From Patescibacteria group bacterium (GTDB lineage Bacteria > Patescibacteriota > Minisyncoccia > Minisyncoccales > UBA10102), in assembly GCA_022563395.1 (NCBI GenBank), contig JADFNM010000001.1:462342-526341 (forward strand): 64,000 nt of DNA, in the 5' to 3' direction. A program made the translations under genes and the position numbers. The notes beneath the pieces are model-generated. The model was not told the DNA's origin, made no database searches, and saw only the letters and a list, made by a program, of their open reading frames with translations. This document shows positions 14,161 through 46,623 of the stretch, in pieces. Each line of letters starts with the position of its first letter. The stretch's first letter is position 1.

Positions 14161-14170
14161 TTGTGTAGTA

Positions 14171-14251
14171 TACCCCGTTAGAAGTTCCCTTCGCAAGCAA
14201 TGTTGCCCCTTTAAGGCGGTACAACCTGGATGCTTAACTTCTAACGGGGTA
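14171..14251. repeat. 16-bp perfect inverted repeat TACCCCGTTAGAAGTT / AACTTCTAACGGGGTA with a 49-nt spacer, over the HK promoter
   Basis: Arms at 14171-14186 and 14236-14251. Same arm core as the elements at 46549-46622 and 60791-60868. Confidence 0.8.
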
Positions 14252-14300
14252 TATCACGGATTGAAAAAGAAGAGCAAAAATGGTATAAGAAAATACGCTG

Positions 14301-14371
14301 CGGGGTGTCGTATAATGGTAGTATGCTTGCTTTGGGAGCATGTGGCTCAGGTTCGATTCCTGGCACCCCGA
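14301..14371 (+). tRNA. tRNA-Pro (anticodon TGG)
   Basis: Acceptor CGGGGTG/CACCCCG, anticodon loop TTTGGGA, T-arm TCAGGTTCGATTCCTGG. One T-T mismatch in the anticodon stem. Confidence 0.85.
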
Positions 14372-14407
14372 CAAGAAACGGAAACAAGTTCTCCTTAAGT
14401 TTAGAAT

Positions 14408-15551: not shown

Positions 15552-15587
15552 CCTAAATGAAATTAAAGCATCCTTAATTTCATTAAG
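15552..15587. repeat. Hairpin-repeat family copy (paired half-sites)
   Basis: CCTAAATGAAATTAAAG ... CCTTAATTTCATTAAG. Near identical to 21934-21970. Confidence 0.8.
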
Positions 15588-15590
15588 AAA

Positions 15591-19600: not shown

Positions 19601-20815
19601 TTACCCTTTTTCTTCTTTTGACGCAACCTCTTTGTGCCTCGTCGGCACATCCTCTGATTTCTCAACCTCCTCTTCTTCTTTTTCTAAAGAAACTCCTTTC
19701 CCTTCTGGGGTTCGAATATCTATCTTCCAACCCGTGAGTTTGGCCGCTAAGCGCACGTTCTGGCCATCCCGTCCAATGGCCAAGGACAGCTGATCTTCTG
19801 GAACAATGGCCACTGCCTTGTTCTGATCTTGAACCTCAACCTGCAGAACCTTGGCAGGGGATAGGGAATTTGCAAGATATACTTCAGAATCCTCTGCCCA
19901 TTCAATAATGTCTATCTTTTCACCCCCCAGCTCATTAATAACGGCAGAAACCCTTGTACCTCTTTGCCCTACCATGGAGCCAACCGGATCCACCCCTTCC
20001 TCCCGCGAAACCACGGCAATCTTTGACCTGGATCCGGGTTCCCTGGTAATGGCCTTAATCTCCACGCTTTCTGCTGCAATCTCTGGAACTTCCAATTCAA
20101 AAAGCTTGGAAATGAACTTGGGGTAGGCACGAGAGAGAACCACAGAAGGACCCCGGGGCTGGTCTTCTACAGACAAGAGGTAGAACTTCAATCTTTGGCC
20201 CGGACGGTAAAACTCTCCTGGAACCTGCTCTTCTTTGGGCATAATTCCTAACGTCTTTCCCAGATCCACAAATACCATTCTTCCCTCCACTCGCTGCACA
20301 ATGCCAGACACCAGCTCTCCTTCCTTTGACTGAAACTCTTCTAACACCGCCTCTCGTTCCGCCTCGCGTATCTTTTGCAAGATAACCTGCTTTGCGGTTT
20401 GAGCTGCAATCCTTCCGTAGTCGCCCTTTGACTCCAGTTTTATCTCCAGATCCTCTCCCACAGCAATCTTTTTTTGTATCTTCTTTGCGTCTGCCAAAAG
20501 AATGTGGCGCTCAGGGTGAAACCTCACCTTTTTCCCCTCTTGCGCAAGCTCTTCCTCCTCTTTTTTGTCCTTTAATTCCTCCAACTCCTCTTCTGAATAG
20601 ATCATGTCTTCGTCTACCACCTGCTTTACCTGCCAAAACTCAACCTTCCCTGTTTTGGGGTCCATTTTTGCCTTCACTATCTGTCCTCTGGTTCCGTATT
20701 CTTTTTTGTAGGCAGCGGCAACAGCCTGCTCAATTAACTCAAAGACCTTTTCCTTGGGAAGGCCTTTCTCTTCTGCAATGATCTCTACTGCCAGTAAAAA
20801 GTTTTTTAGATCCAT
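19601..20815 (-). CDS. nusA: Transcription termination/antitermination factor NusA
   Basis: N-terminal domain, S1 (GELVSGIVQRVE) and two KH domains (GQRGTRVSAV, IGRDGQNVRLAAKLTGWKIDI). Start taken at the ATG at 20815. Confidence 0.9.
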   Translation of the reverse strand: MDLKNFLLAVEIIAEEKGLPKEKVFELIEQAVAAAYKKEYGTRGQIVKAKMDPKTGKVEFWQVKQVVDEDMIYSEEELEELKDKKEEEELAQEGKKVRFHPERHILLADAKKIQKKIAVGEDLEIKLESKGDYGRIAAQTAKQVILQKIREAEREAVLEEFQSKEGELVSGIVQRVEGRMVFVDLGKTLGIMPKEEQVPGEFYRPGQRLKFYLLSVEDQPRGPSVVLSRAYPKFISKLFELEVPEIAAESVEIKAITREPGSRSKIAVVSREEGVDPVGSMVGQRGTRVSAVINELGGEKIDIIEWAEDSEVYLANSLSPAKVLQVEVQDQNKAVAIVPEDQLSLAIGRDGQNVRLAAKLTGWKIDIRTPEGKGVSLEKEEEEVEKSEDVPTRHKEVASKEEKG

Positions 20816-21026
20816 CCTTCGCTTTCTCGCTTCGCTCAAAAGCTACGGATGCCCTTCCGTAGCCTCCGGCGAAGGAGGGCTACAATTTCTATACTCTTGA
20901 TTAAAGAATGTCCGCTTTTGGCGGACACCTTCATTCACAAAGCCACTATACATCCTTTACTCCACTCTGTCAATCCCTCCTTAATAAAATTAAGGAATCG
21001 TTCTGAGCTACCACACATAACGTAGC

Positions 21027-21875
21027 TCAGTCTCCAACTCTATATTCCTCACTTTTTGGAGGTTTCACCCTTCCAGATTTTATGTCTCTTTTAAGATAAA
21101 AACGAGGCTTCCCTATGACATCAAAAATAGTCTCGTATGGTTCAAAAGAAACCATGTCCTCTCCAAAACTTAAATCATCCAGATCGCGGAGGATAAGTAA
21201 AAGGATAGCAACGGTTGAGATAAGCGTGCCAGTCAAAAAAAGAGATGGTAGGTCTGGTGTTCTGACAAAAAAGATAGAGAACACCAGGATCAAAGAAAGA
21301 AACAAAACTACCATCCACTCCAATTTACTCAACCTATCTTTGCCATACATAAATAAGCGTTCTCGTGCGGTTGTAATCTCGTTTAAAAGCGGCAAGAAGT
21401 TCGTATACGTCTCCACTTCTTTATTGGTCTTTAATTCTTTTACATCACCAAGAGATTGAATGATTGCATTAAAATGCGGGTCAATTTTTCCATAGTCCTG
21501 CCACTCAACAGCAAAGAACTCTCTTACGTATCTATCAATAAGTTCTTGCTGTTTTTTTGCCCACTCTTTGTGCTGAGGGAAGTCCCCGAGTATCTGTGTA
21601 AAAAGATAATAGGTCTGAAGACCACTGACCTCTGTTGCAACACTGTCCCTGATTTTTTGGAACCTGCTCCATAGGTCGGTAATGAAAAACCCAACCAGGA
21701 TTGCGAAAAGAAGGCCCACGACTCCCAGAATGGTGTTTATACCCTCTCCTACATCTTCCTTGGTGGGAAGCAGAAAAACCAGGAGAAACGATCCCGCTAT
21801 AACAACAGTAACAAGATATGGGAGCTTAATTTTCTTTAAGAGAGAGGCCACATATTTATAATACTGAACTAGCAC
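21027..21875 (-). CDS. Membrane protein, hypothetical (GTG start)
   Basis: 282-aa ORF with four TM helices, AT-rich, flanked by hairpin-family repeats. Confidence 0.5.
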   Translation of the reverse strand: MLVQYYKYVASLLKKIKLPYLVTVVIAGSFLLVFLLPTKEDVGEGINTILGVVGLLFAILVGFFITDLWSRFQKIRDSVATEVSGLQTYYLFTQILGDFPQHKEWAKKQQELIDRYVREFFAVEWQDYGKIDPHFNAIIQSLGDVKELKTNKEVETYTNFLPLLNEITTARERLFMYGKDRLSKLEWMVVLFLSLILVFSIFFVRTPDLPSLFLTGTLISTVAILLLILRDLDDLSFGEDMVSFEPYETIFDVIGKPRFYLKRDIKSGRVKPPKSEEYRVGD

Positions 21876-21933
21876 AATAAGACAAGAAACCCGCCTATTT
21901 GGCGCTTCTTTGTTTTGAGATAAACCGATATCT

Positions 21934-22073
21934 CCTAAATGAAATTAAAGCATTCTTAACTTCATTAGGGAATCACTAATTTCAATGAATATTGCTTAAA
22001 TCTCGTTTAGGCATGAATGATTTTTCCGATTATCTCTTAAATGAAATTAAGGATTCCTTAATTTCATTTAAGA
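21934..22073. repeat. Cluster of three hairpin-family copies
   Basis: 21934-21970 is a paired half-site copy, 21995-22011 is CTTAAATCTCGTTTAGG, and 22035-22073 is a perfect 19-bp-arm palindrome TCTTAAATGAAATTAAGGA-T-TCCTTAATTTCATTTAAGA. Confidence 0.85.
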
Positions 22074-22090
22074 ACTATTGAATTCTCACT

Positions 22091-22119
22091 TTGACCTACA
22101 AAAGGAGGTGGGGCATACT
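22091..22119 (+). promoter_or_regulatory. Promoter TTGACC-17-CATACT, -10 ends 6 nt before the ATG at 22126
   Basis: Hexamers and spacing read directly from the sequence. Confidence 0.5.
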
Positions 22120-22125
22120 TGAGAT

Positions 22126-23079
22126 ATGAGCATTATACGGCTTGCCGTCTTCTTTCTCTTTCTCTTTTTTCCTTTCTCTCTTGCTTTCGCTCAAGAGACA
22201 AACGCCGGGTTTGTACAGGGTGTTTGGTATTCAAAAACCCCCTTTTTTGCAGGGGATACGATAAGAATATACACTGCAATTCAGAACAACTCCGGCTTTG
22301 ACATTCAAGGAACCATAGAGTTTTTGGTAAACGGCAACAATATAGGTGAATCATCGTTTTCTGCTGCCAACGGAAGAATTACAGAAGCATGGAGCGATTG
22401 GAAAGTTACACAGGGAAATTACTCCGTTGCAGCTCACATTAAAGAAGCATTTAGGGTAGAGATTGGAAAAAATCCAGAGCCAATTTCCCTGGGCACTGGT
22501 GTGCTTGGAGCAAGCGAGGTGTTTATAGATGAAGATACGGATCAAGATGGAATAGGAAATATGGAGGATGACGACGATGATAACGACGGCCTCACAGATC
22601 AAGAGGAAGAAATACTTAAAACAGACCCTCTGAATCCAGATACAGACGGAGACGGAGTAAGCGACCAAGAAGAGGTAAATTCTGGGACCAACCCATTAGT
22701 AAAAGAGAATGCTTTAATAGAAACGCAGGAAAAATCAGAAAAAGAGGAAGTGGTACCAGAAGAATCCCTTTTAAAAGAGATTACTGACACAATAACCCAA
22801 GAATACCTTCCTTCTCTCGTACAAAAAGTAGATGCTCTCGCAAAAGACACAACAGAGAAACTCAAAGAGCAAAGACAGGAACTTCAAGAAAAGAAAAATG
22901 CATTTTTAGCAGGAAAAAGCCCCGAGCCCCTTTCTGTGGCAGAACAAAGCCTGGACTTTCTTTTAGCCTCAGCCATTATTGCCCTACCACAATGGCAGAT
23001 TGGTTTGTTCCTCTTTTTTGCAATTGCAGCAGCTCTCCTGTTACGCCGTCTCGCTTCTAAAGAACAAGAAAGAGGATAA
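22126..23079 (+). CDS. Secreted protein with thrombospondin-type-3-like Asp-rich Ca-binding repeats and a C-terminal TM anchor
   Basis: Signal peptide; DTDQDGIGNMEDDDDDNDGLTDQEE..DPLNPDTDGDGVSDQEE; C-terminal hydrophobic helix. Confidence 0.6.
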   Translation: MSIIRLAVFFLFLFFPFSLAFAQETNAGFVQGVWYSKTPFFAGDTIRIYTAIQNNSGFDIQGTIEFLVNGNNIGESSFSAANGRITEAWSDWKVTQGNYSVAAHIKEAFRVEIGKNPEPISLGTGVLGASEVFIDEDTDQDGIGNMEDDDDDNDGLTDQEEEILKTDPLNPDTDGDGVSDQEEVNSGTNPLVKENALIETQEKSEKEEVVPEESLLKEITDTITQEYLPSLVQKVDALAKDTTEKLKEQRQELQEKKNAFLAGKSPEPLSVAEQSLDFLLASAIIALPQWQIGLFLFFAIAAALLLRRLASKEQERG

Positions 23080-23455
23080 AGAAATTCACTAAGGCACTCA
23101 AGATACACCATTCACACCACTTTTTCAAGATGAAAGCTTGAACAAAAAGAAGGTACAAAGAAGCAAGGGAGGCTGAAATTGCAGCAAACAGCAAAAGGGA
23201 AAGAAGGGGAAGTCCCAGACCCATGGTATTGCCAAGCTGCGAGAGAACAAACAGGGCAAGAACAAAAAGGTAAAAGCCAACGCCAAACACCTCGCTGGGG
23301 ATACCAAACATGTATCCATACTCGCTCTTGCTCACTTTGTCGCAGTCATCCCCAAAAAAACACACAAGCTTTTCCTTTCGGAGTTTTTTGTACAAGAGGT
23401 AAGAGGCATCTGCCAACCCAATAAGGGCTAGAACGGGAATCCAAAAAGAAAACAT
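23057..23455 (-). CDS. VKOR (vitamin K epoxide reductase) family membrane protein
   Basis: Four TM helices, a loop Cys pair (C..DDC) and a CEWC redox motif in the last helix. Confidence 0.55.
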   Translation of the reverse strand: MFSFWIPVLALIGLADASYLLYKKLRKEKLVCFFGDDCDKVSKSEYGYMFGIPSEVFGVGFYLFVLALFVLSQLGNTMGLGLPLLSLLLFAAISASLASLYLLFVQAFILKKWCEWCILSALVNFFILFLVL

Positions 23456-23456
23456 A

Positions 23457-24374
23457 TTACAGCCAGCGGTTTTTCAAAAATAAGGTAAGAACGGCAACAG
23501 AAACTAAAATAGTGACCCCCAGCACCACCAAAAAGGCATCAGGGGAATCAGCCAGGGGAAGACGCACATTCATGCCGTAAAAAGAGGCAATAATGGTTGG
23601 AACGGTCAAAACAATGGTAAGAGCAGTTAAGATTTTTATCACCCGGTTTAAGTTGTTGCTCATGATGGTAGAGTATCCTTCCCTGACGTTGCTAATACTC
23701 CTCATGTTGGACTGGCACAGTTCAATTAACTGGCGGTTTGAAAGCGTGAGGTCTTCCACTAATTCGCGGTCTTGCTCGTAGAGCTGCAGAAATTTCCCAG
23801 ACAAAAGATTATTCAGCAAGGTGTTTGTGGGGGTCAGGGCTGCGAGAAAATCGTTCAAAGACCCTTCAAACATCACAAACTGCTTTATCTCCTTGTTTCC
23901 AATGTCTTCTAAGCGAACCGTCACTCCCCGCACATTCTTTGCAATGTTGTTGATGAAAGAAGAGTACGCGGTGTTGATTTCAGAAAAGAGCTGCAGGAAG
24001 AGTTTGGTTTTTTGCGTGGTGTAAAATTCCACCCTGCCTTCCTGAAACTTTGCTAAAAAGGGAAGAGAACGATGAGAAATCGTCAAAACAAAGTTTTTGC
24101 CAACTGCAATCATGAGAGGAGTGGTGGTCTGCACTTCTTCTTGAAGAGGCACCCTTGTGTATACATACGTCACGCCTCCTTCTCGCTCCACCCGGGGAAC
24201 CTCATAGGGATCCACAGCGTCTCGGAGAAGATCTCTATTAAGTGGCAGATCCTGTGCCAAAAAATCCAGCTCTTCCTCGGTTGGATTCTCAACTGCAACC
24301 CAAGAACCCGTCTTGAACTTTTCAAGCGTTTGGAGCTCCTGTTCTTTTAATGTTCTGTAGTAGATAGTAATCAT
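23457..24374 (-). CDS. corA: CorA-family Mg2+/Co2+ transporter
   Basis: C-terminal two TM helices with the YGMNV signature. Confidence 0.85.
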   Translation of the reverse strand: MITIYYRTLKEQELQTLEKFKTGSWVAVENPTEEELDFLAQDLPLNRDLLRDAVDPYEVPRVEREGGVTYVYTRVPLQEEVQTTTPLMIAVGKNFVLTISHRSLPFLAKFQEGRVEFYTTQKTKLFLQLFSEINTAYSSFINNIAKNVRGVTVRLEDIGNKEIKQFVMFEGSLNDFLAALTPTNTLLNNLLSGKFLQLYEQDRELVEDLTLSNRQLIELCQSNMRSISNVREGYSTIMSNNLNRVIKILTALTIVLTVPTIIASFYGMNVRLPLADSPDAFLVVLGVTILVSVAVLTLFLKNRWL

Positions 24375-24399
24375 AGAATTTTTCTATTATACCTTACGG

Positions 24400-24470
24400 T
24401 GGACCTAGGCGGAATCGAACCGCCGTCTCAGCAATGCGAATGCCGCATTCTACCATTGAACCATAGGCCC
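24400..24470 (-). tRNA. tRNA-Ala (anticodon CGC)
   Basis: Acceptor GGGCCTA/TAGGTCC with the G3:U70 identity pair, anticodon loop TTCGCAT, T-arm GGCGGTTCGATTCCGCC. Confidence 0.85.
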
Positions 24471-24545
24471 TGGTCGGGGATGTGGGAGTCGAACCCACCA
24501 TCTCACCGTCCCGAACGGTGCATGTTGCCGCTACACTAATCCCCG
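24471..24545 (-). tRNA. tRNA-Pro (anticodon CGG), CCA encoded
   Basis: Acceptor CGGGGAT/ATCCCCG, anticodon stem CACCG/CGGTG, loop TTCGGGA. Confidence 0.9.
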
Positions 24546-24579
24546 TTTGTTTTTAATGTTTGAAACCAAGCAGTTGGTT

Positions 24580-26067
24580 TCAAACCCAATACTTTTGTTT
24601 TGACATTTCATCCCGCTTCATCTCCACATGTTCGCGCTCTTTCTTTGCCTTCTTTGAAAGATGGAGGAGTTCTGCCTCCTCAAGGGGTAAGAGTTCTTTT
24701 ACTTCCCTCTCCAGATACTTTTTGGTATTCTTCTTGGGGTCTTCCAGCACCCCCGCCAACAGCACATCTAATAGGTAGCCAACCTTGGGACCAGGGGAAA
24801 GGTTTCCCAGTTTCATTACGTCCGAACCGTTGAGTTTTAACATCTTTGCTGAAATGGGGTCCTTTTGCACCCTTTCAATAACATACCGCAAGTGGCGAAG
24901 CTTGTAGGGTTCGGCCTTTGGCACCCCAGAGCCAATGCGGTCTGCCATGCGAACTTGCATTAAATCCTCCACGTTCTCTTTCCCAATATTTCGCAGTAAC
25001 CTCCGAATGGATGATTCTGTTACTTCGTCCACGTTGTAGTAAAAGAGGTGATAACGAACCAGATTCGCTATCTTCCCTGTTTGTTTTTTGGGAAACTTAA
25101 GGCGTTCTAAAATCCGTTCTGTCATTTTAGCTCCCACCACCTCATGGCCATAGAAAGTGGAGTGTAAACCTTCTCCTCTCTTTACCTTGGGCTTGCCAAC
25201 ATCATGCAGCAAAGAAGCCAGTCTCACTTCCAAACTCCAGTTGTTTTTTGCTGCGTATTGCAAAGCCAAAAGGTTGTGTTCCCACACGGTGTAAATGTGG
25301 TGCTTGTTTTGAGCGACTCCATACCCTTGCTCAAGCTCCGGAAGAATGTATTTGAGCAGGCCTAATTCTCTGAGTTCTTCAATGCCTTCCATTGCTTTTT
25401 TGCCCATGAGAAGCTTTAAGAACTCATCCCGTATTCTTTCAGCTGAAATTTCTTTTAAAAGGCTTGCATCCTTTTGAATTGCCTTTCTGGTCTTCTCTTC
25501 TATTGCAAACCCCAGGGTTGCAACAAAGCGCACTGCTCTCATCATGCGCAAGGCATCTTCTTTAAACCGTTCCTTTGGATTTCCCACTGCGCGAATGAGT
25601 TTTGCTTTTAAGTCCCTTTGTCCTTCAAAAGGGTCGTACACCTTCAGCTCTCCTAAACGAGATTTAGGAGCTCCTAAATCTCGTTTAGGAGATAAGGCAA
25701 TGGCATTTACAGTAAAGTCGCGGCGAGAAAGATCTTCGTTAAGATTATTTGCATATTCAACCCTTCCTGGCCTCCTTCGGTCTGCATACTCAAACTCAGC
25801 CCTAAAGGTGGTCACCTCAATCTCTTTTACATGGGGGTCTTTGCTGTTGGTGAGAATAGTTACCGTAAAGAACTTATTTTCATAGAAGTTGCTGGGAAAG
25901 AGTTTTTGAATCTGCTCTGGGGTGGCACTTGTCGCAATGTCCCAGTCGTTGGGCTCTTTTTTTAAGAACAGGTCCCGAACGCATCCTCCCACCACATATG
26001 CCTCAAAACCTGCTTTCTCAAGCTTTGCTACAACCTCTTTTACCTCTTTTGGAAGAGCAGTCTTCAT
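24580..26067 (-). CDS. cca: CCA-adding tRNA nucleotidyltransferase with HD domain
   Basis: GGCVRD nucleotidyltransferase motif, RRDFTVNAIA and an HD domain (LLHDVGKP). Confidence 0.85.
   Translation of the reverse strand: MKTALPKEVKEVVAKLEKAGFEAYVVGGCVRDLFLKKEPNDWDIATSATPEQIQKLFPSNFYENKFFTVTILTNSKDPHVKEIEVTTFRAEFEYADRRRPGRVEYANNLNEDLSRRDFTVNAIALSPKRDLGAPKSRLGELKVYDPFEGQRDLKAKLIRAVGNPKERFKEDALRMMRAVRFVATLGFAIEEKTRKAIQKDASLLKEISAERIRDEFLKLLMGKKAMEGIEELRELGLLKYILPELEQGYGVAQNKHHIYTVWEHNLLALQYAAKNNWSLEVRLASLLHDVGKPKVKRGEGLHSTFYGHEVVGAKMTERILERLKFPKKQTGKIANLVRYHLFYYNVDEVTESSIRRLLRNIGKENVEDLMQVRMADRIGSGVPKAEPYKLRHLRYVIERVQKDPISAKMLKLNGSDVMKLGNLSPGPKVGYLLDVLLAGVLEDPKKNTKKYLEREVKELLPLEEAELLHLSKKAKKEREHVEMKRDEMSKQKYWV
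25650..25691. repeat. Perfect 42-bp palindrome of the hairpin family, in frame inside cca
   Basis: CTCCTAAACGAGATTTAGGAG|CTCCTAAATCTCGTTTAGGAG. Encodes SPKRDLGAPKSRLG between NAIAL and ELKVYDPFEG. Confidence 0.9.
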
Positions 26068-26070
26068 CGC

Positions 26071-26099
26071 TTGAATATTAGCTTAAATTGTGGTATATT
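26071..26099 (+). promoter_or_regulatory. Promoter TTGAAT-17-TGgTATATT upstream of tRNA-Arg(TCG)
   Basis: Hexamers, 17-nt spacer and extended -10 TG read directly from the sequence. Confidence 0.5.
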
Positions 26100-26169
26100 T
26101 CAATCGAAAGCTTCCTTAATTTCATTAAGGCCTGCCTGCGCAGACAGGAGATAGACGAGTAAATGTACT

Positions 26170-26242
26170 GTCCTCGTGGTGTAATGGATAACATTTTGCG
26201 CTTCGGACGCGACGATTGCAGGTTCGAGTCCTGCCGAGGACA
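26170..26242 (+). tRNA. tRNA-Arg (anticodon TCG)
   Basis: Acceptor GTCCTCG/CGAGGAC, anticodon stem TTGCG/CGCGA, loop CTTCGGA. Flanked by hairpin-family copies at 26114-26130 and 26247-26262. Confidence 0.9.
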
Positions 26243-26283
26243 CAATCCTTAATTTCATTAAGAAAATATGGCAGAATAGAACA

Positions 26284-26676
26284 ATGAAGAAGTTTCTCCC
26301 CATAGTTCTCATCGTATTCCTGTTTTTGCCTTTGCTCATTTTTGCACAACAGGGGCTGGTTCCTTGTGGCGAAGCAGGAAACCCTTGCAAGTTGTGCCAT
26401 CTTTTTCAGCTCGTCAACAACATCTTAAATTGGGTGCTCTTTGTAATTATCCCCATTATAGCCCCTATCTTTATTGTGATTGGGGGCATCTACCTTTTGA
26501 TTGCGCGAGGCGATCCTGGGATGTTTAGTAAGGGGAAAAGCGTCTTGACTGCAACCGTTATTGGCCTTATTATCGTGTACACCGCCTATGTTCTCTTGAG
26601 CACTGTGCTCACCTCTTTGGGAGTAGCTAACTGGACCGGCCTTGGAAGCTGGTGGCAAATTGCTTGTCCGATATAA
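26284..26676 (+). CDS. VirB2/TrbC-like T4SS pilin family protein
   Basis: Signal peptide, then a GLVPCG..C..C motif, then two TM helices separated by ARGDPGMFSKGK. Confidence 0.65.
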   Translation: MKKFLPIVLIVFLFLPLLIFAQQGLVPCGEAGNPCKLCHLFQLVNNILNWVLFVIIPIIAPIFIVIGGIYLLIARGDPGMFSKGKSVLTATVIGLIIVYTAYVLLSTVLTSLGVANWTGLGSWWQIACPI

Positions 26677-26818
26677 ATGAAGAGATTATAGACCCGGGGA
26701 AACCCAAACAGTCTGCCAAAGTAGTCCCGCACAAGCGGGACCCCGGGCCGAGCTTCTTATGCCGTGCTCGCCGCTGGCTCGCACATGGCAAAATATGTTG
26801 CTCGGCCGGCAAAAGCCA

Positions 26819-26948
26819 AGCAGTTGGAATGGGTAGATTATAGACCCGGTGCATTTTCTCGGTGAGCCGAGCCTACTGGCAAACAACGCTCGCAGAGAAA
26901 ATGCCCCTTAAAACCAAAGCAGTTTGGTTTTAAGCCCCCATAGCTCAA
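26819..26948. repeat. Right copy of the ~130-bp inverted repeat (partner 3951-4081)
   Basis: See 3951-4081. Extends 15 nt into tRNA-Lys, whose 5' end equals that of tRNA-Arg(TCT). Confidence 0.85.
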
Positions 26949-27004
26949 TGGCAGAGCAGAGGACTCTTAATCCTTTGATGTAAGTTCGACTCTTACTGGG
27001 GGCA
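26934..27004 (+). tRNA. tRNA-Lys (anticodon CTT)
   Basis: Acceptor GCCCCCA/TGGGGGC, anticodon stem GAGGA/TCCTT, loop CTCTTAA. Confidence 0.9.
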
Positions 27005-27053
27005 CTATATTTATTAGTAGTATGAAAGTACCTTGAATGAAATTAAGAACGTG

Positions 27054-27081
27054 TTGATTTTTTGGCGATTCGTGATACAGT
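27054..27081 (+). promoter_or_regulatory. Promoter TTGATT-16-TACAGT, -10 ends 6 nt before the rpsO ATG
   Basis: Read directly from the sequence. Confidence 0.45.
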
Positions 27082-27087
27082 GCAGCT

Positions 27088-27354
27088 ATGCTCACTACAA
27101 AAGACAAGGAAAAACTGATTGAAAAATACAAGATTCATACCACAGACTCAGGGTCCCCCGAGGTTCAGATTGCCTTAATTACCGAGGAAATCAAGCGGCT
27201 GCTCTCACACTTAAAAAAGCATCCCAAGGACTTTCATTCAAAAAGGGGTCTTTTGAAAACCGTGGCAAAAAGGAGAACTCTCCTGGCATATCTCAAGCAG
27301 GAGAGCGTGAGACGCTACAACAGCCTTATTAAAAAGATTGGATTGAAAAAGTAA
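27088..27354 (+). CDS. rpsO: 30S ribosomal protein S15
   Basis: 88 aa; [33 protein letters not shown]. Confidence 0.95.
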
Positions 27355-27358
27355 TAGA

Positions 27359-27892
27359 ATGCCCATTAAAAACAAGGATCAGCGCGTCGCTATCTTTATT
27401 GACGTTCAGAACCTATATCATTCAGCAAAGAACCTCTATCAGGCAAGAGTGAACTTCCGGGAGATCTTGAAAACCGCAACGGCTGGCAGAATGCTCATTC
27501 GGGCCATGGCCTATGTAGTAAAAACCAAAACAGGGGAAGAAAAACCTTTTTTTGATGCCTTGCTTGGCCTTGGCATTGAAACCAGGGTAAAAGACCTTCA
27601 AGAATACTATGGGGGCTTAAAAAAGGCAGACTGGGATGTTGGTATCGCAGTAGATGCCATTAAAAACTCGGGGGGGGTAGATGTTATTGTCTTAATCTCC
27701 GGGGACGGGGACTATGTTCCTTTGGTGGAGTATCTTAAAAACCACGGCAAACGCGTGGAGGCCCTGGCTTTTGGAAAATCCACCTCCACCAAACTGCGTG
27801 AATCAGTGGATGAGTTTATCGACCTGGGAGAGGATTCTGGAAAATATCTTTTAAAGAAATCACGATGGCCAGCAATCAGGATTATAAAATAA
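27359..27892 (+). CDS. NYN/LabA-like domain protein (putative RNase)
   Basis: VAIFIDVQNLYHSAK..ISGDGDYVPLVEYLK pattern of NYN/LabA domains. Confidence 0.7.
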   Translation: MPIKNKDQRVAIFIDVQNLYHSAKNLYQARVNFREILKTATAGRMLIRAMAYVVKTKTGEEKPFFDALLGLGIETRVKDLQEYYGGLKKADWDVGIAVDAIKNSGGVDVIVLISGDGDYVPLVEYLKNHGKRVEALAFGKSTSTKLRESVDEFIDLGEDSGKYLLKKSRWPAIRIIK

Positions 27893-30000
27893 AACTCGGA
27901 GAAAAGGAGATTTCTTTTGAATTAACCTCCCTTGCTGAGCAGGCAAACGGGAAGGTTTTGGTCAGAATGGGAGATACCGTGGCTTTGGTAACAGCTGTCA
28001 TGTCCCGCCAATCCTTAGACAATCTCCCCTTTTTCCCCTTAACCGTAGAGTATGAAGAGCGATTCTACGCTGCAGGGAAAATCCTGGGTTCGCGCTACAT
28101 GCGAAGGGAAGGAAGGCCCTCGGATGAGGCGGTGATTACGGCCCGCTTAATTGACCGCGCCATTCGCCCCTTGTTCCCCAAAGGATTCAACCGCGAAGTT
28201 CAGGTTATCTGCACCGTGCTTTCCTGGGACGCAACAAACGACCCCGACGTTATGGGGTTAATGGGAGCTTCCTTGGCGCTTTCAACTTCTAACATTCCTT
28301 TTGCAGGACCTGTTGGAGTTGTTCGTATTGGCAACATAGATGGAAAGTTTGTCTTGAACCCAACCTATGAAGAACGCTCAAAGAGCGACCTCGACTTTGT
28401 GTTGGCAGCTACAGCTAAAAAGGGAGAAGTTCTCTTTAATATGATAGAGGCAGAGGGGCAGGAGGTGCCAGAAGACGTATTTCAAGAAGCCCTGGAGTTT
28501 GCAGAGCCCCACCTGTTGTCGCAAATTGAGTTTCAGGAAAAGATTGCAAAAGAACAAGGAAAAGAAAAAGTGCCTTTTGAGGCACCGGGAAGCGATAACG
28601 AACTTGTCCGGGAATGCAAAGAGTTTCTAGGAGAAAAGTTAAAAGAAGCTTTGTTTACAGGAGAAAAGCCTTTACGAATGGAAGCTGTCAATGATCTAAA
28701 GGCAGAGCTCGCCTACTATATTGAGGGCAAGTTTCCAGGACAGGAAAAGGCAAACCCTGCAAAGGACTACTTTGAGTCTGAAATTGACGCCGCGGTTCAC
28801 GAAGCAGCACTCAAGGAAGGAAAGCGCGTAGATGACAGAAAGTTAGATGAAGTAAGAGAGCTTTCAGGAGAGGTTGGGCTTCTCCCCCGCACTCACGGCT
28901 CAGGACTCTTTGTGCGCGAGCGCACCAAAACCCTCTCCATTCTCACCCTGGGAGCGCCCGGAGACCAGAGGCTTATGGAAGGCATGGAGTTTATTGGAAA
29001 GAAACGCTTCATGCACCATTACAACTTTCCTCCGTATGCGCCAGGCGAGGTAAAACCCATGCGGGGCCCCGGAAGACGAGATATTGGCCACGGCTTGCTG
29101 GCTGAAAAAGCCCTCCTTCCCATTATTCCTTCTGTTGACCAGTTCCCCTATACCATTCGCATTGTGACAGAGGTTGTCTCCTCCAACGGCTCCACCTCCA
29201 TGGCTGCGGTCTGCTCCTCCGCGCTTGCCTTGTTGGATGCCGGAGTTCCCATCAAAAGACCGGTTGCCGGCATCTCAATGGGAGTAATGATGGCAGAAAA
29301 CGGCAAGGGTTACGCACTCTTAACTGACATTCAAGGGCCAGAAGACCACCATGGAGACATGGACTTTAAGGTGGCAGGAACCAAAGAAGGAATTACTGCA
29401 ATTCAGATGGACGTGAAAGTACAAGGCATTAGCAAACAAATATTTAAGGAAGCCCTGGCTGCTGCAAAAGAAGTCAGGTTTAAGATTTTAGATAATGTTA
29501 TTGAAAAACTGCTGCCCGAGCAAAGAAGGGAGCTTTCACCCTTTGCCCCTCGCATTATTATTCTTAAAATTAAGCCTGAAAAAATTGGCATGGTTATTGG
29601 CCCTGGAGGAAAAACCATCAACAAGATTATGGACGAAACCGGAGTAGAAATTGACATTGACGATTCGGGCGAAGTTTTCATTACGACAGACGACCCAGAA
29701 ATGGCAAAAAAGGCCTCTGACATGGTACAAGGTATTGTAAAAGAGGTTGAGGTGGGAGAACTGTATGAAGGAAAAGTAAAGAAGATAATGGACTTTGGCG
29801 CATTCGTTGAAATACTTCCGGGTCACGATGGCTTGGTCCACATTTCCCAACTTGCCAATGAACGAGTTGAGAAGGTGACCGACGTGGTAAACGTGGGAGA
29901 CAGTATCACCGTAAAGGTTATCAAGATAGATGACCTCGGGAGAATTGATCTTTCTTTGAAAGAGGCAAAAAAAGCGAGTAGCAAAATGCCAGCACAATAG
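27865..30000 (+). CDS. pnp: Polynucleotide phosphorylase
   Basis: Two RNase PH domains, KH (IGPGGKTINKI) and S1 (GELYEGKVKKIMDFGAFVEI). Confidence 0.95.
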   Translation: MASNQDYKIKLGEKEISFELTSLAEQANGKVLVRMGDTVALVTAVMSRQSLDNLPFFPLTVEYEERFYAAGKILGSRYMRREGRPSDEAVITARLIDRAIRPLFPKGFNREVQVICTVLSWDATNDPDVMGLMGASLALSTSNIPFAGPVGVVRIGNIDGKFVLNPTYEERSKSDLDFVLAATAKKGEVLFNMIEAEGQEVPEDVFQEALEFAEPHLLSQIEFQEKIAKEQGKEKVPFEAPGSDNELVRECKEFLGEKLKEALFTGEKPLRMEAVNDLKAELAYYIEGKFPGQEKANPAKDYFESEIDAAVHEAALKEGKRVDDRKLDEVRELSGEVGLLPRTHGSGLFVRERTKTLSILTLGAPGDQRLMEGMEFIGKKRFMHHYNFPPYAPGEVKPMRGPGRRDIGHGLLAEKALLPIIPSVDQFPYTIRIVTEVVSSNGSTSMAAVCSSALALLDAGVPIKRPVAGISMGVMMAENGKGYALLTDIQGPEDHHGDMDFKVAGTKEGITAIQMDVKVQGISKQIFKEALAAAKEVRFKILDNVIEKLLPEQRRELSPFAPRIIILKIKPEKIGMVIGPGGKTINKIMDETGVEIDIDDSGEVFITTDDPEMAKKASDMVQGIVKEVEVGELYEGKVKKIMDFGAFVEILPGHDGLVHISQLANERVEKVTDVVNVGDSITVKVIKIDDLGRIDLSLKEAKKASSKMPAQ

Positions 30001-30026
30001 TTTCTTCATTAAATTAAAGAGATAGC

Positions 30027-31220
30027 ATGGACGCACCAAAACAGCCAGCATCCCAGCCAAATCAACAACCCCCTGACGAGAAGTTGGAGTTTTTAAAAAG
30101 AGAAGAGGTTCGCACCATGGCAAAGGACATTGCCAAGGTCAGAGAAGTGGAGGCGAAAAAAGAGCAAGAGCGCATAGCAAACTTTAAAAAAGAAGCGAAA
30201 CTGCCAAAGAAGCCTCAAGTGGTACTCTCCCAACACCCCGAAGGAAAACTCAGGACGATTTCTAACGGCTCCGCAGGAACTCCGCCTGCCCTGGGTACTT
30301 TCCAACGGCTCCGCGGCCTGCCTGCGCAGGCAGGGAGCTCCGCCGAAAGTGCCCGTCCAAGTCAAGCAGTTGACTCGGACCCCGGGGGAACAACGCAGCT
30401 GACTCCAGCCCCAGAACAGCCTTTGATGCAAAGACGTCATCCCAGGCGCTCCGAAAAGCTGTTCATTCGCCTGGTGCTAGGTGGGATTATCTTGTTTCTG
30501 CTCTTTAATGCGGTGGCCTTTGGGTTCTGGTACTTTTTTCAGAAAGAGGCGGAGCCAAGGCTCGAACCAACGAGTGAACAGGTTGAAGAGCCCACTCTGG
30601 CGGAACCAACACCCCCACCTCCCCCCCAGCCAGAGGCTGGTCCGTCTCAGGCGGAACCCCCAATATCCTTTTTTGAAGCGCCAGAGCAAGAACTCTTAAT
30701 TGAGTCCCCAGGAGAGCTCCTTTCCAAACTTCAGGACTTTCTTGGTGGAGTCCCAGCTCTCGGGTTCACCAATCTTGCGGTAAAAACACAAGGGGATATT
30801 CTTTCTCTTAAAGACTTCCTGCAGGGAGCGGAGATCACAATACCCCAAGAACTCAAAGGAAAGCTCGCAGAAAACCTCATGCTCTTTTCCTACGTTGCAG
30901 AAGACAAAAAGCGCCTTGGATTTGTTGCAAAGCTTAAAGAAACAGAGGGTGTATCAGGACTTTTGCAGTCATGGGAGCAAAGCAACATGGAGCAGGACCT
31001 GGCTTCTTTCTTTGACATTATTGAAAGAAAGGGGTCAGCCTACACTCCCTTCTTTCGTTCCGCCACTTACCAGGGAGTGCAAGTTCGCTTTCAGACCTTT
31101 TCTGTGACAGACTTTGGGATTGTGTATGGTGTTCTCGATAACAAATTACTACTCACCAGCTCATTTGAGAGTTTCCAGAGGGCGGTTGACCAACTTAAGG
31201 CATCAAGACCAGAACCTTAG
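30027..31220 (+). CDS. Hypothetical membrane protein with a Pro-rich region
   Basis: 397-aa ORF with one central TM helix, a low-complexity N-terminal half and a PPPPQPE tract. Confidence 0.5.
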   Translation: MDAPKQPASQPNQQPPDEKLEFLKREEVRTMAKDIAKVREVEAKKEQERIANFKKEAKLPKKPQVVLSQHPEGKLRTISNGSAGTPPALGTFQRLRGLPAQAGSSAESARPSQAVDSDPGGTTQLTPAPEQPLMQRRHPRRSEKLFIRLVLGGIILFLLFNAVAFGFWYFFQKEAEPRLEPTSEQVEEPTLAEPTPPPPPQPEAGPSQAEPPISFFEAPEQELLIESPGELLSKLQDFLGGVPALGFTNLAVKTQGDILSLKDFLQGAEITIPQELKGKLAENLMLFSYVAEDKKRLGFVAKLKETEGVSGLLQSWEQSNMEQDLASFFDIIERKGSAYTPFFRSATYQGVQVRFQTFSVTDFGIVYGVLDNKLLLTSSFESFQRAVDQLKASRPEP

Positions 31221-31294
31221 GATATAAACCACCATATTAATAAATCAATAATTTCATCAAGGTGCGCTGCGCACATTGATTTATTAGTACCAGG

Positions 31295-31657
31295 GTGAAC
31301 AAGAAATCAATTACAAAAACACAGCAGAAGTTAGAAGAGAAAAAGAAACAGCTGGAGCAAGAGCTGTCTTCTTTTGCTACCAAAGACCCCAATGTGAAAG
31401 GGGACTGGGACACCAAGTACCCCCGTGTTCCAGAGGGGGACCTAGAGGATGCTGCAGGAGAAGTAGAAGAATACTCCACCAAGCTTCACATTGAGTTTAG
31501 TTTAGAAAAGCAGCTTAAAGAGGTGAACAACGCTTTGGAGCGCATTGCAAAAGGGCAGTATGGAATGTGTGAGAACTGCAGCAAGGAAATTCCAGAAGAA
31601 CGGCTCCTTGCCATACCAGAATCACGGCATTGCACGGAGTGTACAGCAAAGCAATAA
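31295..31657 (+). CDS. DksA/TraR-family C4 zinc-finger protein (GTG start)
   Basis: Coiled-coil N-terminus, and C-terminal CENC..(17 aa)..CTEC. Confidence 0.7.
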   Translation: MNKKSITKTQQKLEEKKKQLEQELSSFATKDPNVKGDWDTKYPRVPEGDLEDAAGEVEEYSTKLHIEFSLEKQLKEVNNALERIAKGQYGMCENCSKEIPEERLLAIPESRHCTECTAKQ

Positions 31658-31692
31658 CAAAAAAGACCCTGGGTTTTGCCCGGGGCCTTGTT

Positions 31693-32658
31693 TTATCGGA
31701 ATGGATTCGCTGCGCCTCTCACCTCAAAGTGAACGTGGCATCCCGTGGCATACCCAGTGCGCCCCGTATATCCAACAAGCTGCCCTTGGTATACTTTTGT
31801 TCCGGGGGTTGTGAGAATTGCTGAAAGATGCCCATAATAGGTCACCACGCCGTTGGGATGAATGATGCGAACATAGTTTCCTCCCAAGGATGTATATCCG
31901 GTTCTCTGCACGGTTCCTCCAGCTGCTGCATACACCGATTCCCCGCATATTCCGTTGGAAAAGTCCACTGCATTAAAGGCGTGCAGTCCTTGGGTGATGT
32001 GGTAGGGGGAAGGAACCGGGTAGATGAAGTAGGAGTTGGCAAGAGGAGTGAGTCTGCCTTGGGGAAGAACCGAGGGTTGAATACCGTCTGGAATAATCAA
32101 GAAGTCTCCTGCAAAAATGGCAGAAGAGGATTCCAGGGCATTAAAGGAAACAATCTCTTTAACTTCAGCTTGGTACCAGCTTGCAATCTCGCTTAAAGTA
32201 TCGTTGGGGCGCACCAGGTGCAGAGCACCGATGGTGGGCAGGATTACAAGCTCATGGCCTGGTTTTAATGTGGAGCTTTGAGACAGGTCGTTTGCCCAGA
32301 GAATGGTGTTCAAAGAAACCCCAAACTGCTCTGCCACGCTTGCCGTGGTATCTTCTTTCTGTACAATATATCTTGCAACCTCGGGGCGAATATCAGCTTC
32401 CAGTTGCCCCATAATGGCTCCTAGCACCTGAGGAGTTATGGTCAAAGGAGGGGTGGCGGCCCGAAGGGTATTGTGCGCCACAAACATTAACTCGGGGGTT
32501 TCTGGAGCCGGAGCCTGCTTAGAAGAAAGTTCAAAAGCAGAAAGAACATTGGATCTAAGGCCTAGGTCTCCTGGCCCCTCTATGGTGCGAAAACTCAATA
32601 TGAGCAACAAAAAAGTAGCGATCACAGCTACATATAAAAGAGGGCTAGCGGTTTTCAT
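31693..32658 (-). CDS. LysM-domain M23 metallopeptidase
   Basis: Two LysM-like segments (YIVQKEDT..; HLVRPNDTLSEIA), and M23 motifs HxxxD-like AVDF plus YGHL..GCHVHFEV. Confidence 0.85.
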   Translation of the reverse strand: MKTASPLLYVAVIATFLLLILSFRTIEGPGDLGLRSNVLSAFELSSKQAPAPETPELMFVAHNTLRAATPPLTITPQVLGAIMGQLEADIRPEVARYIVQKEDTTASVAEQFGVSLNTILWANDLSQSSTLKPGHELVILPTIGALHLVRPNDTLSEIASWYQAEVKEIVSFNALESSSAIFAGDFLIIPDGIQPSVLPQGRLTPLANSYFIYPVPSPYHITQGLHAFNAVDFSNGICGESVYAAAGGTVQRTGYTSLGGNYVRIIHPNGVVTYYGHLSAILTTPGTKVYQGQLVGYTGRTGYATGCHVHFEVRGAANPFR

Positions 32659-32723
32659 ACCTATTGTCCCATGTTACGCTCACTGACCTCAAAGTCAATA
32701 TCTGTATCCACACCCCTAAAACA

Positions 32724-33548
32724 ATGGATTTATACTCAATAAAAACTATAAAAGAGCTTCTAAGAGCATACAATACAATCCCAAAGGAACGCCTTGGTCA
32801 GAACTTCTTGTTGGAAAAAAGGGTGGCTTCAAAGATGCTCAAGGCAACAGAGATCTCTCAAAAAGACATCGTTCTTGAGATAGGGCCGGGGATTGGGACT
32901 TTAACCCAAGAACTCGCTCAAAAAGCAAAACGAGTCATTGCCGTAGAAAAAGACCCTACCATGGTAAAGATTCTCAGGGAAACCACCGGAGCCCTCCCCA
33001 ATATAGAGATTATCCAAGCTGACATCCTCAAGCTAAACTTAGCTAGACTAAGTTACTCAAAGGTGGTGGCAAACCTTCCTTATTATATTACCTCGCCTGT
33101 AATACGCATGTTCCTTGAAGCAAAGAACAAGCCAGAGCTCATGGTGTTTATGGTGCAAAAAGAGGTTGCGCAAAGGATTTGTGCCAAGCCCCCAGACATG
33201 AATCTGCTGGCTGTGTCCGTACAGTTTTACGCTGAACCAAAAATCGTTTCCTTTGTGCGCAAGGGTGCTTTTTGGCCTCAGCCTAAGGTGGATTCTGCTA
33301 TTGTAAAGATTGTGCCAAAAAATGAGTTACCTTTTGTGGATCCTGGTCTTTTCTTTCGTATTGTGAAAGCGGGCTTTAAACAACCAAGAAAGCAGCTAGG
33401 AAACAACCTCGCGCAAGGACTCAAACTTTCAAGAGAAGAAATAGAAACTTGGCTTAACCAAGGGGATATTCAACCAACGCAGAGGGCCGAAACCCTTTCA
33501 CTTACAGACTGGGTAGTGCTCGCAAAATCTCTTCCAAAGTCTACCTAA
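32724..33548 (+). CDS. rsmA: 16S rRNA (adenine1518/1519-N6)-dimethyltransferase
   Basis: LGQNFL and VLEIGPGIGTLT SAM motifs. Start at the ATG at 32724. Confidence 0.9.
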   Translation: MDLYSIKTIKELLRAYNTIPKERLGQNFLLEKRVASKMLKATEISQKDIVLEIGPGIGTLTQELAQKAKRVIAVEKDPTMVKILRETTGALPNIEIIQADILKLNLARLSYSKVVANLPYYITSPVIRMFLEAKNKPELMVFMVQKEVAQRICAKPPDMNLLAVSVQFYAEPKIVSFVRKGAFWPQPKVDSAIVKIVPKNELPFVDPGLFFRIVKAGFKQPRKQLGNNLAQGLKLSREEIETWLNQGDIQPTQRAETLSLTDWVVLAKSLPKST

Positions 33549-33585
33549 ACGAGATTTAGGTGTGGATAACTAAATCTCGTTTAGG
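33544..33585. repeat. Hairpin-family copy (paired, CCTAAACGAGATTTAGG .. CTAAATCTCGTTTAGG)
   Basis: Same sequence as the in-frame palindrome in cca, with a 9-nt spacer. Overlaps the rsmA stop. Confidence 0.85.
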
Positions 33586-33615
33586 CAGAACGGGAGAATC
33601 TGGTACAATAAAACA

Positions 33616-36249: not shown

Positions 36250-36255
36250 ACACAT

Positions 36256-36272
36256 CCTTAATTTCATTTAGG
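36256..36272. repeat. Hairpin-family copy CCTTAATTTCATTTAGG
   Basis: Lies 51-67 nt upstream of the ATG at 36323. Confidence 0.8.
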
Positions 36273-36322
36273 AACTATGGCTTTCCATTTTCACCCTCTC
36301 TGGGATATAATATAATAACCAT

Positions 36323-43615: not shown

Positions 43616-43636
43616 TGCCTTAACTAAATTATGGAT

Positions 43637-43655
43637 TCCTTAATCTCGTTAAGGA
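43637..43655. repeat. Hairpin-family copy TCCTTAATCTCGTTAAGGA
   Basis: Lies 20-38 nt upstream of the ATG at 43675. Confidence 0.8.
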
Positions 43656-43674
43656 AACGCCCAAGGTATATACA

Positions 43675-46055: not shown

Positions 46056-46060
46056 TGCGT

Positions 46061-46195
46061 TTACGGCGTCAGGCGCTTTCTGCCTTTCTTTCTTCTGCGG
46101 GACAACACCCTTTTGCCGTTCTTGGTTTTGCTGCGCTTGAGAAACCCGTGGGTTCTAGCCCTCTTTTTCTTTTTTGGCTGATACGTTATGCTCAT
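46061..46195 (-). CDS. rpmH: 50S ribosomal protein L34 (not in ORF track, 44 aa)
   Basis: Manual translation: [50 protein letters not shown] lies 7 nt upstream. Confidence 0.9.
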
Positions 46196-46548: not shown

Positions 46549-46622
46549 CCCGTTAGAAGTCCAGCCCACAAACGTAGAAACCATCCATGAACAACAATGC
46601 TAACAATTTTAACTTCTAACGG
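46549..46622 (+). promoter_or_regulatory. dnaA leader element: 11-bp stem arms flanking a 10-codon mini-ORF (46587-46619, MNNNANNFNF)
   Basis: CCGTTAGAAGT ... ACTTCTAACGG. About 80% identical over ~78 nt to 60790-60868. The mini-ORF stop lies 4 nt before the dnaA ATG. Confidence 0.6.
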
Positions 46623-46623
46623 C

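Follow-up and report, generated by a model that had tools for sequence, protein, structure and literature searches.

The best-known cases of essential genes with in-frame palindromic repeats are those of Rickettsia and a few proteobacteria. MITEs, or miniature inverted-repeat transposable elements, are 70-300 bp long, with terminal inverted repeats derived from insertion sequences and with target-site duplications, and quasipalindrome template-switch mutagenesis (the Ripley model) is a mutational process, which alone moves no sequence between distant loci. Here, we analyse a stretch of 64,000 nucleotides from a Patescibacteria group bacterium (referred to as the window), in which the cca gene, coding for a CCA-adding enzyme, contains a perfect palindrome in frame, and we compare this palindrome with the closest described repeats and with the same locus in related genomes.

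The Rickettsia palindromic elements (RPEs; Ogata et al. 2000) are palindromic repeats found in frame in the housekeeping open reading frames (ORFs) of a reduced genome (summaries in PMC10969869 and PMC3733652). They are ~100-150 bp long and encode a conserved peptide of 30-50 aa (PMC10969869). Repetitive extragenic palindromes (REPs) are imperfect palindromes of 20-40 bp located 3' of ORFs, which often form dimers of opposite orientation (head to head or tail to tail) that fold into longer hairpins, and the ends of which supply stop codons (PMC3733652). More than half of the intragenic REPs are dimers, and their host genes include tRNA-related ones (PMC3733652, Di Nocera et al. 2013), while the described REP superfamilies carry a GTAG or CGTC tetranucleotide at the unit end (PMC3733652). 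Our literature search returned no report of such in-frame palindromic repeats in Patescibacteria.

The host gene and the palindrome are located as follows:
24580-26067, minus strand: host gene cca, class II CCA-adding enzyme, 495 aa, intact (Pfam, PDB matches, AlphaFold2)
25649-25692, minus strand: cca palindrome, perfect, 44 bp (repeat finder, hairpin scan, RNA fold)

A first-pass annotation, made from the sequence letters alone, had reported a perfect 42-bp palindrome at 25650-25691. Read directly from the window, this segment is CTCCTAAACGAGATTTAGGAG|CTCCTAAATCTCGTTTAGGAG, exactly as reported, and both a repeat finder and a separate hairpin scan extended it by one base per side, to a perfect inverted repeat of 44 bp with 22-nt arms that are 100% complementary and with a spacer of 0. 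It consists of two 21-bp hairpin units joined head to head as a dimer (25650-25670 and 25671-25691). Each 21-nt half folds alone into an 8-bp stem (CTCCTAAA/TTTAGGAG) with a 5-nt loop (CGAGA for one half, TCTCG for the other), and the 62 nt of RNA around the dimer fold into a 20-bp helix (-35.7 kcal/mol, z = -8.2). The in-frame peptide is SPKRDLGAPKSRLG(E), flanked by NAIAL and ELKVYDPFEG, and its reading is S-PKRDLG-A-PKSRLG-E. Because the palindrome is symmetric, the antisense plus-strand ORF 25544-25885 holds an identical peptide, so that the remark of the first-pass annotation that both strands encode the same residues is true, if trivially.

The cca gene with its loop DNA is identical in three independent metagenome assemblies, in which neighbourhoods of 17-21 kb are at least 99.9% identical to the window. 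Contigs of several independent metagenome assemblies, these three among them, encode the identical CCA protein, and no difference in the presence or absence of the repeat was seen among the three other assemblies of the same species (≥99.9% identical). As the loop DNA is the same across independent assemblies, an assembly artefact is ruled out. Together with the related idea that the segment is native protein sequence with chance-palindromic DNA, this explanation is extremely improbable: nothing speaks for it beyond the loop being translated, a perfect 22-bp arm match would occur by chance with a frequency of ~4^-22, the identical DNA is present in at least three independent assemblies, and the peptide varies between relatives while the symmetry stays. 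The refuting condition named in the first-pass annotation, the 14 residues occurring elsewhere without a palindrome, did not arise: in the distant orthologue P0026, which has nearly the same residues, the DNA is also palindromic, with compensatory base changes.

The cca ORF contains the Pfam domains PolyA_pol PF01743 (4.6e-36), PolyA_pol_RNAbd PF12627, HD and tRNA_NucTran2_2, and the best solved relatives of its product are the bacterial CCA-adding enzymes 6ibp (1e-49) and 1miv (6e-47). Class II CCA-adding enzymes are recognised by a PolyA_pol head with GGxVRD, DxD, RRD and EDxxR, plus an RNA-binding neck; the cca product carries GGCVRD, DWD, RRDF and EDALR, and these conserved residues are invariant across 120 orthologues. 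At the very position of the insert, the HMMER alignment to 6ibp has a gap of 12 residues (NAMAMTE------------DLKIIDPF), a figure that rests on the 6ibp alignment, as the alignment of the other match, 1miv, was not displayed. This bears out the earlier statement that the segment is only a few residues long in known CCA enzymes. We also ran the structural modelling that had been proposed to place the insert. In the AlphaFold2 model, built from 42 orthologues (mean predicted local distance difference test score, pLDDT, of 86), residues 130-139 have a pLDDT below 50 and lie between strands 124-127 and 141-144. Since this low-confidence stretch falls between two strands and coincides with the gap in 6ibp, the insert, PKRDLGAPKSRLG, is predicted to extend the tip of a beta-hairpin in the head domain as a disordered surface loop. 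The loop is 3 to about 35 aa long among the 120 orthologues. Thus, as in RPEs, the repeat is in frame in an intact ORF, at a structurally permissive site (pLDDT <50, gap in solved homologues).

The cca palindrome is not the only copy of its unit. A search of the window with the degenerate unit CCTAAAYGARATTTAGG gave 16 matches at ≤3 mismatches, against 0.4 in shuffled sequence, and the 15-mer CTAAACGAGATTTAG gave 6 matches at ≤2 mismatches, against 0.14 expected. The 17-nt core of the cca palindrome, CCTAAACGAGATTTAGG, occurs again at 33544-33560 (17/17) and in inverted form at 33569-33585 (16/17), which confirms that its half-sites are the hairpin units noticed earlier between genes at 33544-33585. 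All units outside cca are intergenic and mostly just 3' of genes; those at 15552, 20978, 33541, 36256, 43636 and 49752 are a few tens of nt from stop codons. Inverted pairs are present at four loci (15552-15588, 22035-22073, cca and 33541-33589). The unit stems are of 6-8 bp and the loops of 3-5 nt, and two subfamilies can be distinguished, one with a CGAGA loop and CCTAAA stems, the other with a TGAAA loop and CTTAA stems, the stem changes being compensatory. Two of the intergenic pairs fold stably as RNA (33541-33589, -25.9 kcal/mol, z = -6.9; 22035-22073, -21.9 kcal/mol). The copies of this AT-rich family outside cca, with the strand where one is assigned, are:
15552-15588: inverted unit pair directly 3' of the RNase Y gene (stop 15591, minus strand)
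20978-20996: single unit 3' of a bestrophin-like gene
21934-22011: degenerate units at 21934-21950, ~21955-21975 and 21995-22011, in the same divergent intergenic region as 22035-22073
22035-22073: perfect 39-bp palindrome, dimer of the TGAAA-loop unit CTTAAATGAAATTAAGG, intergenic (repeat and hairpin scans, fold)
26113-26148, plus strand: composite of the AT-rich unit CCTTAATTTCATTAAGG (26113-26130) abutting the GC-rich palindrome CCTGCCTGCGCAGACAGG, just upstream of tRNA-Arg
26247-26263: single unit that directly follows tRNA-Arg (26170-26243) and is oriented like the 26113 unit
33541-33589, plus strand: inverted dimer at the 3' end of ksgA, an rRNA dimethyltransferase gene (ksgA-3'), arms 33544-33560 and 33569-33585, 10-nt spacer containing TGTGGATAA (RNA fold)
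36256-36272: single unit just past the stop codon of an 877-aa PKD-domain gene
43636-43656: single unit TTCCTTAA tctcg TTAAGGAA, separating a TraG-like gene from the next gene
49752-49772: single unit TGCTTAAA cgaaa TTTAAGCA, flanked by convergent genes

The ksgA stop codon TAA (33546-33548) sits within the first arm of the 33541-33589 dimer, in the CCTAAA of the unit. Outside the source genome, CCTAAACGAGATTTAGG was found in a 596 Gb contig collection only as 16 single matches in unrelated taxa, which is at chance level, and the AT unit gave 3 stray matches in the IMG/VR viral collections. No Rfam family matches the units, the search having found only tRNAs. We also considered whether the units are intrinsic terminators and rejected this, as their stems are AT-rich (CCTAAA/TTTAGG) without a T tract, and no unit is among the terminator-like sites of positions 20000-37000.

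Several observations concern the surroundings of these copies. In the ksgA-3' dimer, the 9-nt spacer matches the DnaA-box consensus perfectly (TTATCCACA, minus strand); it is kept in the relatives L024 and L029, and in L030 with a single mismatch (here and below, P numbers refer to orthologous proteins and L numbers to sequences of relatives). A DnaA-box role of this spacer was rejected, since the window holds no excess of DnaA-box-like 9-mers (15 against 12.5 expected). Just downstream of the same dimer there is a conserved extended -10 element, TGGTACAAT (window 33546-33569; L024:2598-2639). The tRNA-Arg(TCG) gene at 26170-26243 is bracketed by two AT units of the same orientation, TCCTTAATTTCATTAAGG and TCCTTAATTTCATTAAGA (26113-26263).

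In many respects this family resembles REPs, and the bacterial interspersed mosaic elements (BIMEs) and REPINs built from them: it consists of 21-nt palindromic units dispersed in 16 copies per 64 kb, mainly extragenic and near the 3' ends of ORFs, with only the cca pair intragenic. Its inverted doublets fold into long hairpins, the end of a repeat supplies the stop codon of the upstream gene, in this case ksgA, and, as among intragenic REPs, the in-frame copy is a dimer in a tRNA-related gene. In contrast to REPs, the units carry neither the GTAG nor the CGTC tag, the 64 kb yielded no gene for a REP-associated tyrosine transposase (RAYT, of the Y1 type), which in RAYT-mobilised REPs is a cognate single-copy gene flanked by the repeats, the host is a member of Patescibacteria with a genome of at least ~0.67 Mb, judged by its longest contig, rather than a proteobacterium with a large genome, and one protein loop carries several unrelated palindromic cassettes across a wide radiation. 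The likeness to RPEs that the first-pass annotation had proposed stands only in part. The element is likewise palindromic, in frame in a housekeeping ORF, translated at a fold-compatible site and also present between genes; however, it is not an RPE, as its units are 21 bp (7 aa) or, in a second family, 18 bp (6 aa) long and its dimer 42-44 bp, RPEs (100-150 bp) being 5-7 times longer, and it comes from a different phylum, with no sequence relationship claimed or expected. Similarly to MITEs, the units are non-coding, repeated, able to insert in frame and hairpin-folding, but they are far shorter, lack a target-site duplication at an 18-bp insertion described below and have no common flanks. 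By analogy, the family would work like REPs and RPEs, and we claim membership in neither.

Relatives of the window genome allowed us to compare the cca copy with the one at ksgA-3'. CCTAAACGAGATTTAGG is the sequence of both the cca core and the ksgA-3' arm in the window; in L024, both the cca core and the arm of the syntenic ksgA-3' element read CCTAAACCAGGTTTAGG. The difference between the two genomes is the same at either locus. The ksgA-3' spacer is inverted between the two genomes (TGTGGATAA in the window, TTATCCACA in L024), which shows that the element undergoes flip-flop inversion, and the translated part of ksgA in L024 extends across the first arm and the spacer.

There is also a second, GC-rich family. 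The cca loop of L030 consists of an AT unit followed by a GC-rich palindrome, CCTAAGCGAGACTTAGG-CCTGCCTGCGCAGGCAGG-AGA, and the composite at 26113-26148 of the window has the same arrangement, CCTTAATTTCATTAAGG-CCTGCCTGCGCAGACAGG-AGA. The copies of the GC-rich palindrome are:
30317-30334, plus strand: 18-bp perfect palindrome CCTGCCTGCGCAGGCAGG, in frame in ORF 30027-31220, read LPAQAG
Other copy in the window: 26131-26148
Copies in relatives: L030:927, 2249, 3726, 8724 and 8877; L050:1942

The five copies in 9.9 kb of L030 are distributed over ksgA (1), an intergenic region (1), a 414-aa ORF (1) and cca (2). At a second cca site, after RAVRFVAT, L030 and L050 share the identical 18 bp at the identical position; in an alignment of the 32 closest orthologues, LPAQAG is present at this site only in P0007 and P0013. 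Excision of the 18 bp restores ACC CTR GGG, and no convincing target-site duplication was found at this insertion. All in-ORF copies (the two cca sites, ksgA and ORF 30027-31220) read LPAQAG, one of three possible frames; besides cca and ksgA, the host is a 397/414-aa ORF without a Pfam match. No flanks are shared by the palindrome copies. The viral contigs matched by the GC 18-mer, 25 in IMG/VR and nearly all of 58-67% GC, have no context in common and were judged uninformative.

These identities between loci bear on the possibility that the palindrome arose in place, that is, that a relaxed loop gathers quasi-palindromes which template switching perfects and duplicates, the intergenic likeness being secondary. 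Such an origin would fit with each lineage having its own perfectly symmetric sequence, all of them centred on GGAG|CTCC, with the perfect dimers of L026 and L027, in which the single unit is an imperfect hairpin, and with the lack of target-site duplications. The Ripley type of template switching would account for the perfect arms, for the inverted duplication from 21 to 42 bp, for the inverted spacer and for the missing target-site duplications. Nevertheless, the in-place explanation fails on the 17/17 identity of cca and ksgA-3' in two genomes with two variants, on the common composite of AT unit and GC unit, and on the identical 18-bp GC palindrome at five sites within 9.9 kb of L030, and we regard it as quite improbable.

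The closest cca orthologues (78-88% identity) are mostly 486-489 aa long, not 481 aa. Most of them have one unit at the cca site, read PKSRLG, PKPRLG, PRSRLG, PKSDLG or PKPGLG, and a few are short-looped (TQKGKE, RQKGKE, KNGE). Two units are present in several scattered lineages, among them P0026, with the following loop peptides:
P0010: PKLSLGAPKLSLG
P0011: PWLGLGAPRPSQG
P0026 (70% identity): PKRDLGEPKSRLG
P0027: PKSDLGTPKSDLG
P0030: PRPGLGVTPRPGLG
P0075: PKPGLGREHPRPGLG

The insert is therefore not a single 42-bp insertion peculiar to this genome, since many orthologues of 78-88% identity hold one unit there and an orthologue of 70% identity a pair. For the same reason, the claim that it adds exactly 14 codons stands in comparison with canonical enzymes, with the 12-residue gap in 6ibp, and falls to 7 codons in comparison with the nearest orthologues with one unit. 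The DNA of the loop in individual relatives is:
L024: monomer, 11-bp stem, TCTCCTAAACC a GGTTTAGGAGA
L049: monomer, TCTCCTAAG tctcg CTTAGGAGA
L025: perfect 46-bp palindrome of a different sequence
L026: perfect 40-bp palindrome, again with a sequence of its own
L048: 18-bp perfect arms, 4-nt spacer
L027: 17-bp perfect arms, 10-nt spacer
L029: perfect arms of 15 bp and a 3-nt spacer, different in sequence (GGAAACCAGGTTTCC)
L028: decayed, non-palindromic, of the same length; peptide LTKKAG
L031 and L050: short loop, QKGKE

Both orientations of the monomer loop occur in cca, CGAGA in L030 and TCTCG in L049. We aligned the four dimers of equal length (L001, L025, L026 and L048; alignment A5, 20 arm pairs). 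In this alignment, 95% of the cells were paired; the inner 18 of the 20 pairs were perfect in all four sequences, and unpaired cells were confined to the outer two. Ten of the 20 pairs carried changes in both partners, one-sided changes were absent, and the pairing score collapsed once the partner was slid by one column or more. The four dimers encode differing peptides. As the arms co-vary while the peptides differ, it is the symmetry of the DNA, and not the peptide, that is conserved. This pattern would result either from dimers being repeatedly re-made by inverted duplication, or from arms being kept complementary by homogenisation or selection. The element has long been resident in the cca loop, and its monomer and dimer forms would interconvert.

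The second of these routes leads to an explanation in which the hairpin is a functional nucleic-acid element under selection and the peptide a by-product. For instance, the cca mRNA and 3' untranslated regions would carry a long stem of double-stranded RNA, read by an RNase III-type RNase or an RNA- or DNA-binding protein, and cca would belong to a hairpin-marked regulon. Such an explanation is favoured by the perfect co-variation of the arms in four lineages with a changing peptide, by the ksgA-3' element, which at least five genomes keep in one place while its stems change compensatorily, by the joint change of the cca and ksgA-3' copies between genomes, and by the stability of the dimer (the 20-bp helix of -35.7 kcal/mol); unrelated palindromes in the same loop of distant orthologues, without nearby copies, point in the same direction. 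However, the hairpin is dispensable, because many close orthologues have none (P0003/L031, P0013/L050 and P0014) or a decayed one (L028). Furthermore, the re-making of dimers by inverted duplication offers a selection-free route to the same co-variation, there is no Rfam match, and the AT-rich stems without a T tract are not terminator-like. Selection on a functional hairpin is, in our judgement, the main rival explanation, if a rather unlikely one.

More distant relatives show that the loop is a hot spot for cassettes of various kinds. Among the 120 cca orthologues, some cassettes are reused on distant branches of the tree: RLAPLAQGKP (at least five lineages), GKPGFPRKPGF (two clades), KSKIQN-type repeats and CSTLKVEQ. 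The cca loops of more distant relatives hold unrelated palindromes, TGTTCAACCTT g AAGGTTGAACA in L007 and L008 and TTGTTGAGGCC a GGCCTAAACAA in L004, and no second copies of the loop palindromes of L004, L006, L007 and L008 were present in 11-14 kb of flanks. A metagenome search for cca relatives returned only orthologues of 53-66% identity, with unrelated loop palindromes. In L010 (5291-5380), the cca loop has a direct tandem repeat, CAGAAAATAGAAAA..., with the peptide QKIENRKQKIE, and not a palindrome. A similar situation was observed in ksgA, where relatives hold perfect or near-perfect palindromes of 34-44 bp in a hypervariable loop after DILKL:
L024:3118-3161: perfect 44-bp palindrome
L029:3202-3245: 19-bp arms of CTTAATGAAATTAAG-type units, which are intergenic in the window
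L030:704-737: 14-bp arms

In the ksgA of the window (32664-33548), there is no insert after DILKL.

Taken together, the cca palindrome is probably a REP-like dispersed palindromic repeat that is tolerated in frame in a permissive loop of the enzyme. This reading builds on its membership in the dispersed family, its in-frame position at a surface loop, the presence of the element at the same site in relatives, the co-variation of its arms and the variant common to cca and ksgA-3'; that the copy is tolerated rather than useful is what we infer. Since the unit is 21 bp, or 7 codons, monomer and dimer both keep the frame, every change from one to the other preserves it, and the enzyme stays intact. 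The switching between monomer and dimer could proceed via hairpin-mediated replication errors. Fold-back or template-switch copying would give the inverted duplication; either half of the dimer would be lost through slippage between the direct repeats CTCCTAAG, leaving monomers of both orientations. The same fold-back and slippage process would also maintain or restore the perfect symmetry of the arms.

A number of observations weigh against the tolerated-repeat explanation. The short-loop orthologues read QKGKE, and not QKGKE followed by a unit, as if the monomer was a replacement rather than a simple insertion. No REP-associated Y1/RAYT transposase was found among 35 ORFs of the window compared with Pfam or in the Pfam list of 21 kb, the window covering 64 kb out of at least 670 kb of genome (longest contig). 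Neither a GTAG nor a CGTC tag is present in the units, the flanks of which vary (CTCC, CTACC, CTGCC, ATGCC, TTCC and others). The perfect complementarity of the arms across lineages could reflect a selected function and not neutral mechanics. The perfect 23-nt loop palindrome of L007 and L008 has no other copy nearby, and the cca palindromes of L025, L026 and L027 have no second copy within 10 kb on either side; colonisation of the loop by a dispersed family is thus seen just in the window genome, L024 and L030.

A broader proposal is that perfect hairpin cassettes are actively maintained at defined surface loops (cca, ksgA) and gene ends in this group of Patescibacteria. Maintenance might be provided by a dedicated non-RAYT enzyme recognising hairpins, or the stems might serve as RNA or DNA signals in processing, decay or protein binding. 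We consider this proposal unlikely. If true, it would explain why the arms are perfect while sequence and peptide drift, why the cca and ksgA-3' copies change jointly, and why unrelated palindromes converge on one loop.

The window and the relatives also contain hairpins of a third family, with a variable stem of 11-12 bp and a conserved ...CAA-GCAG/CTGC-TTG... apex, in which the structure is kept and the stems co-vary. Its copies, which in several genomes are located directly 5' of tRNA genes (tRNA-Arg 3893-3965 and tRNA-Lys 26934-27005) or at the cca stop codon, are:
Window: 3965-3992, 24558-24585, 26907-26934
Relatives: L024:9156; L025:11556; L026:7686 and 7807; L027:8945; L029:11484
Further relatives: L030:3651 and 6787; L031:1515; L050:154

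Imperfect inverted repeats, GGGGCATTTTCTC...GAGAAAATGC, at 3992-4052 and 26848-26907, each beside a CAA-GCAG-TTG hairpin and a tRNA gene, look like repeated copies of a module, leader or promoter, for tRNA genes. At 14169-14253, just upstream of tRNA-Pro (14301-14372), there is an inverted repeat that is perfect over 18 nt (TATACCCCGTTAGAAGTT / AACTTCTAACGGGGTATA), its arms being 49 nt apart. Positions 1-4000 of the window, with a GC content of 0.39, a large serine recombinase (2314-3867), a helix-turn-helix (HTH) protein and abutting tRNA-His and tRNA-Arg genes, look like the edge of an integrated element. An origin-type cluster is located at 44534-49251, with jag/R3H, yidC and rnpA on the minus strand and dnaA (46597-47982) and dnaN (48124-49251) on the plus strand; the minimum of the cumulative GC skew and the switch in gene strand are instead near 24-28 kb, at the junction of cca, tRNA-Arg and pilin genes.

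The behaviour known from Rickettsia and a few proteobacteria is thus now seen in the ultra-small, streamlined genomes of Patescibacteria, which means that such repeats survive genome reduction. They make conserved proteins vary in length, with the cca loop ranging over 3 to 35 aa and ksgA being a similar hot spot, and those who annotate or align these proteins should expect such variation; the 7-aa PK(RD/SR)LG and 6-aa LPAQAG cassettes are usable as markers of the repeats in protein databases. With its 21-bp units, its monomer and dimer forms and its many natural variants, this compact system is well suited to asking whether palindromes persist through selection or through the mechanics of replication.

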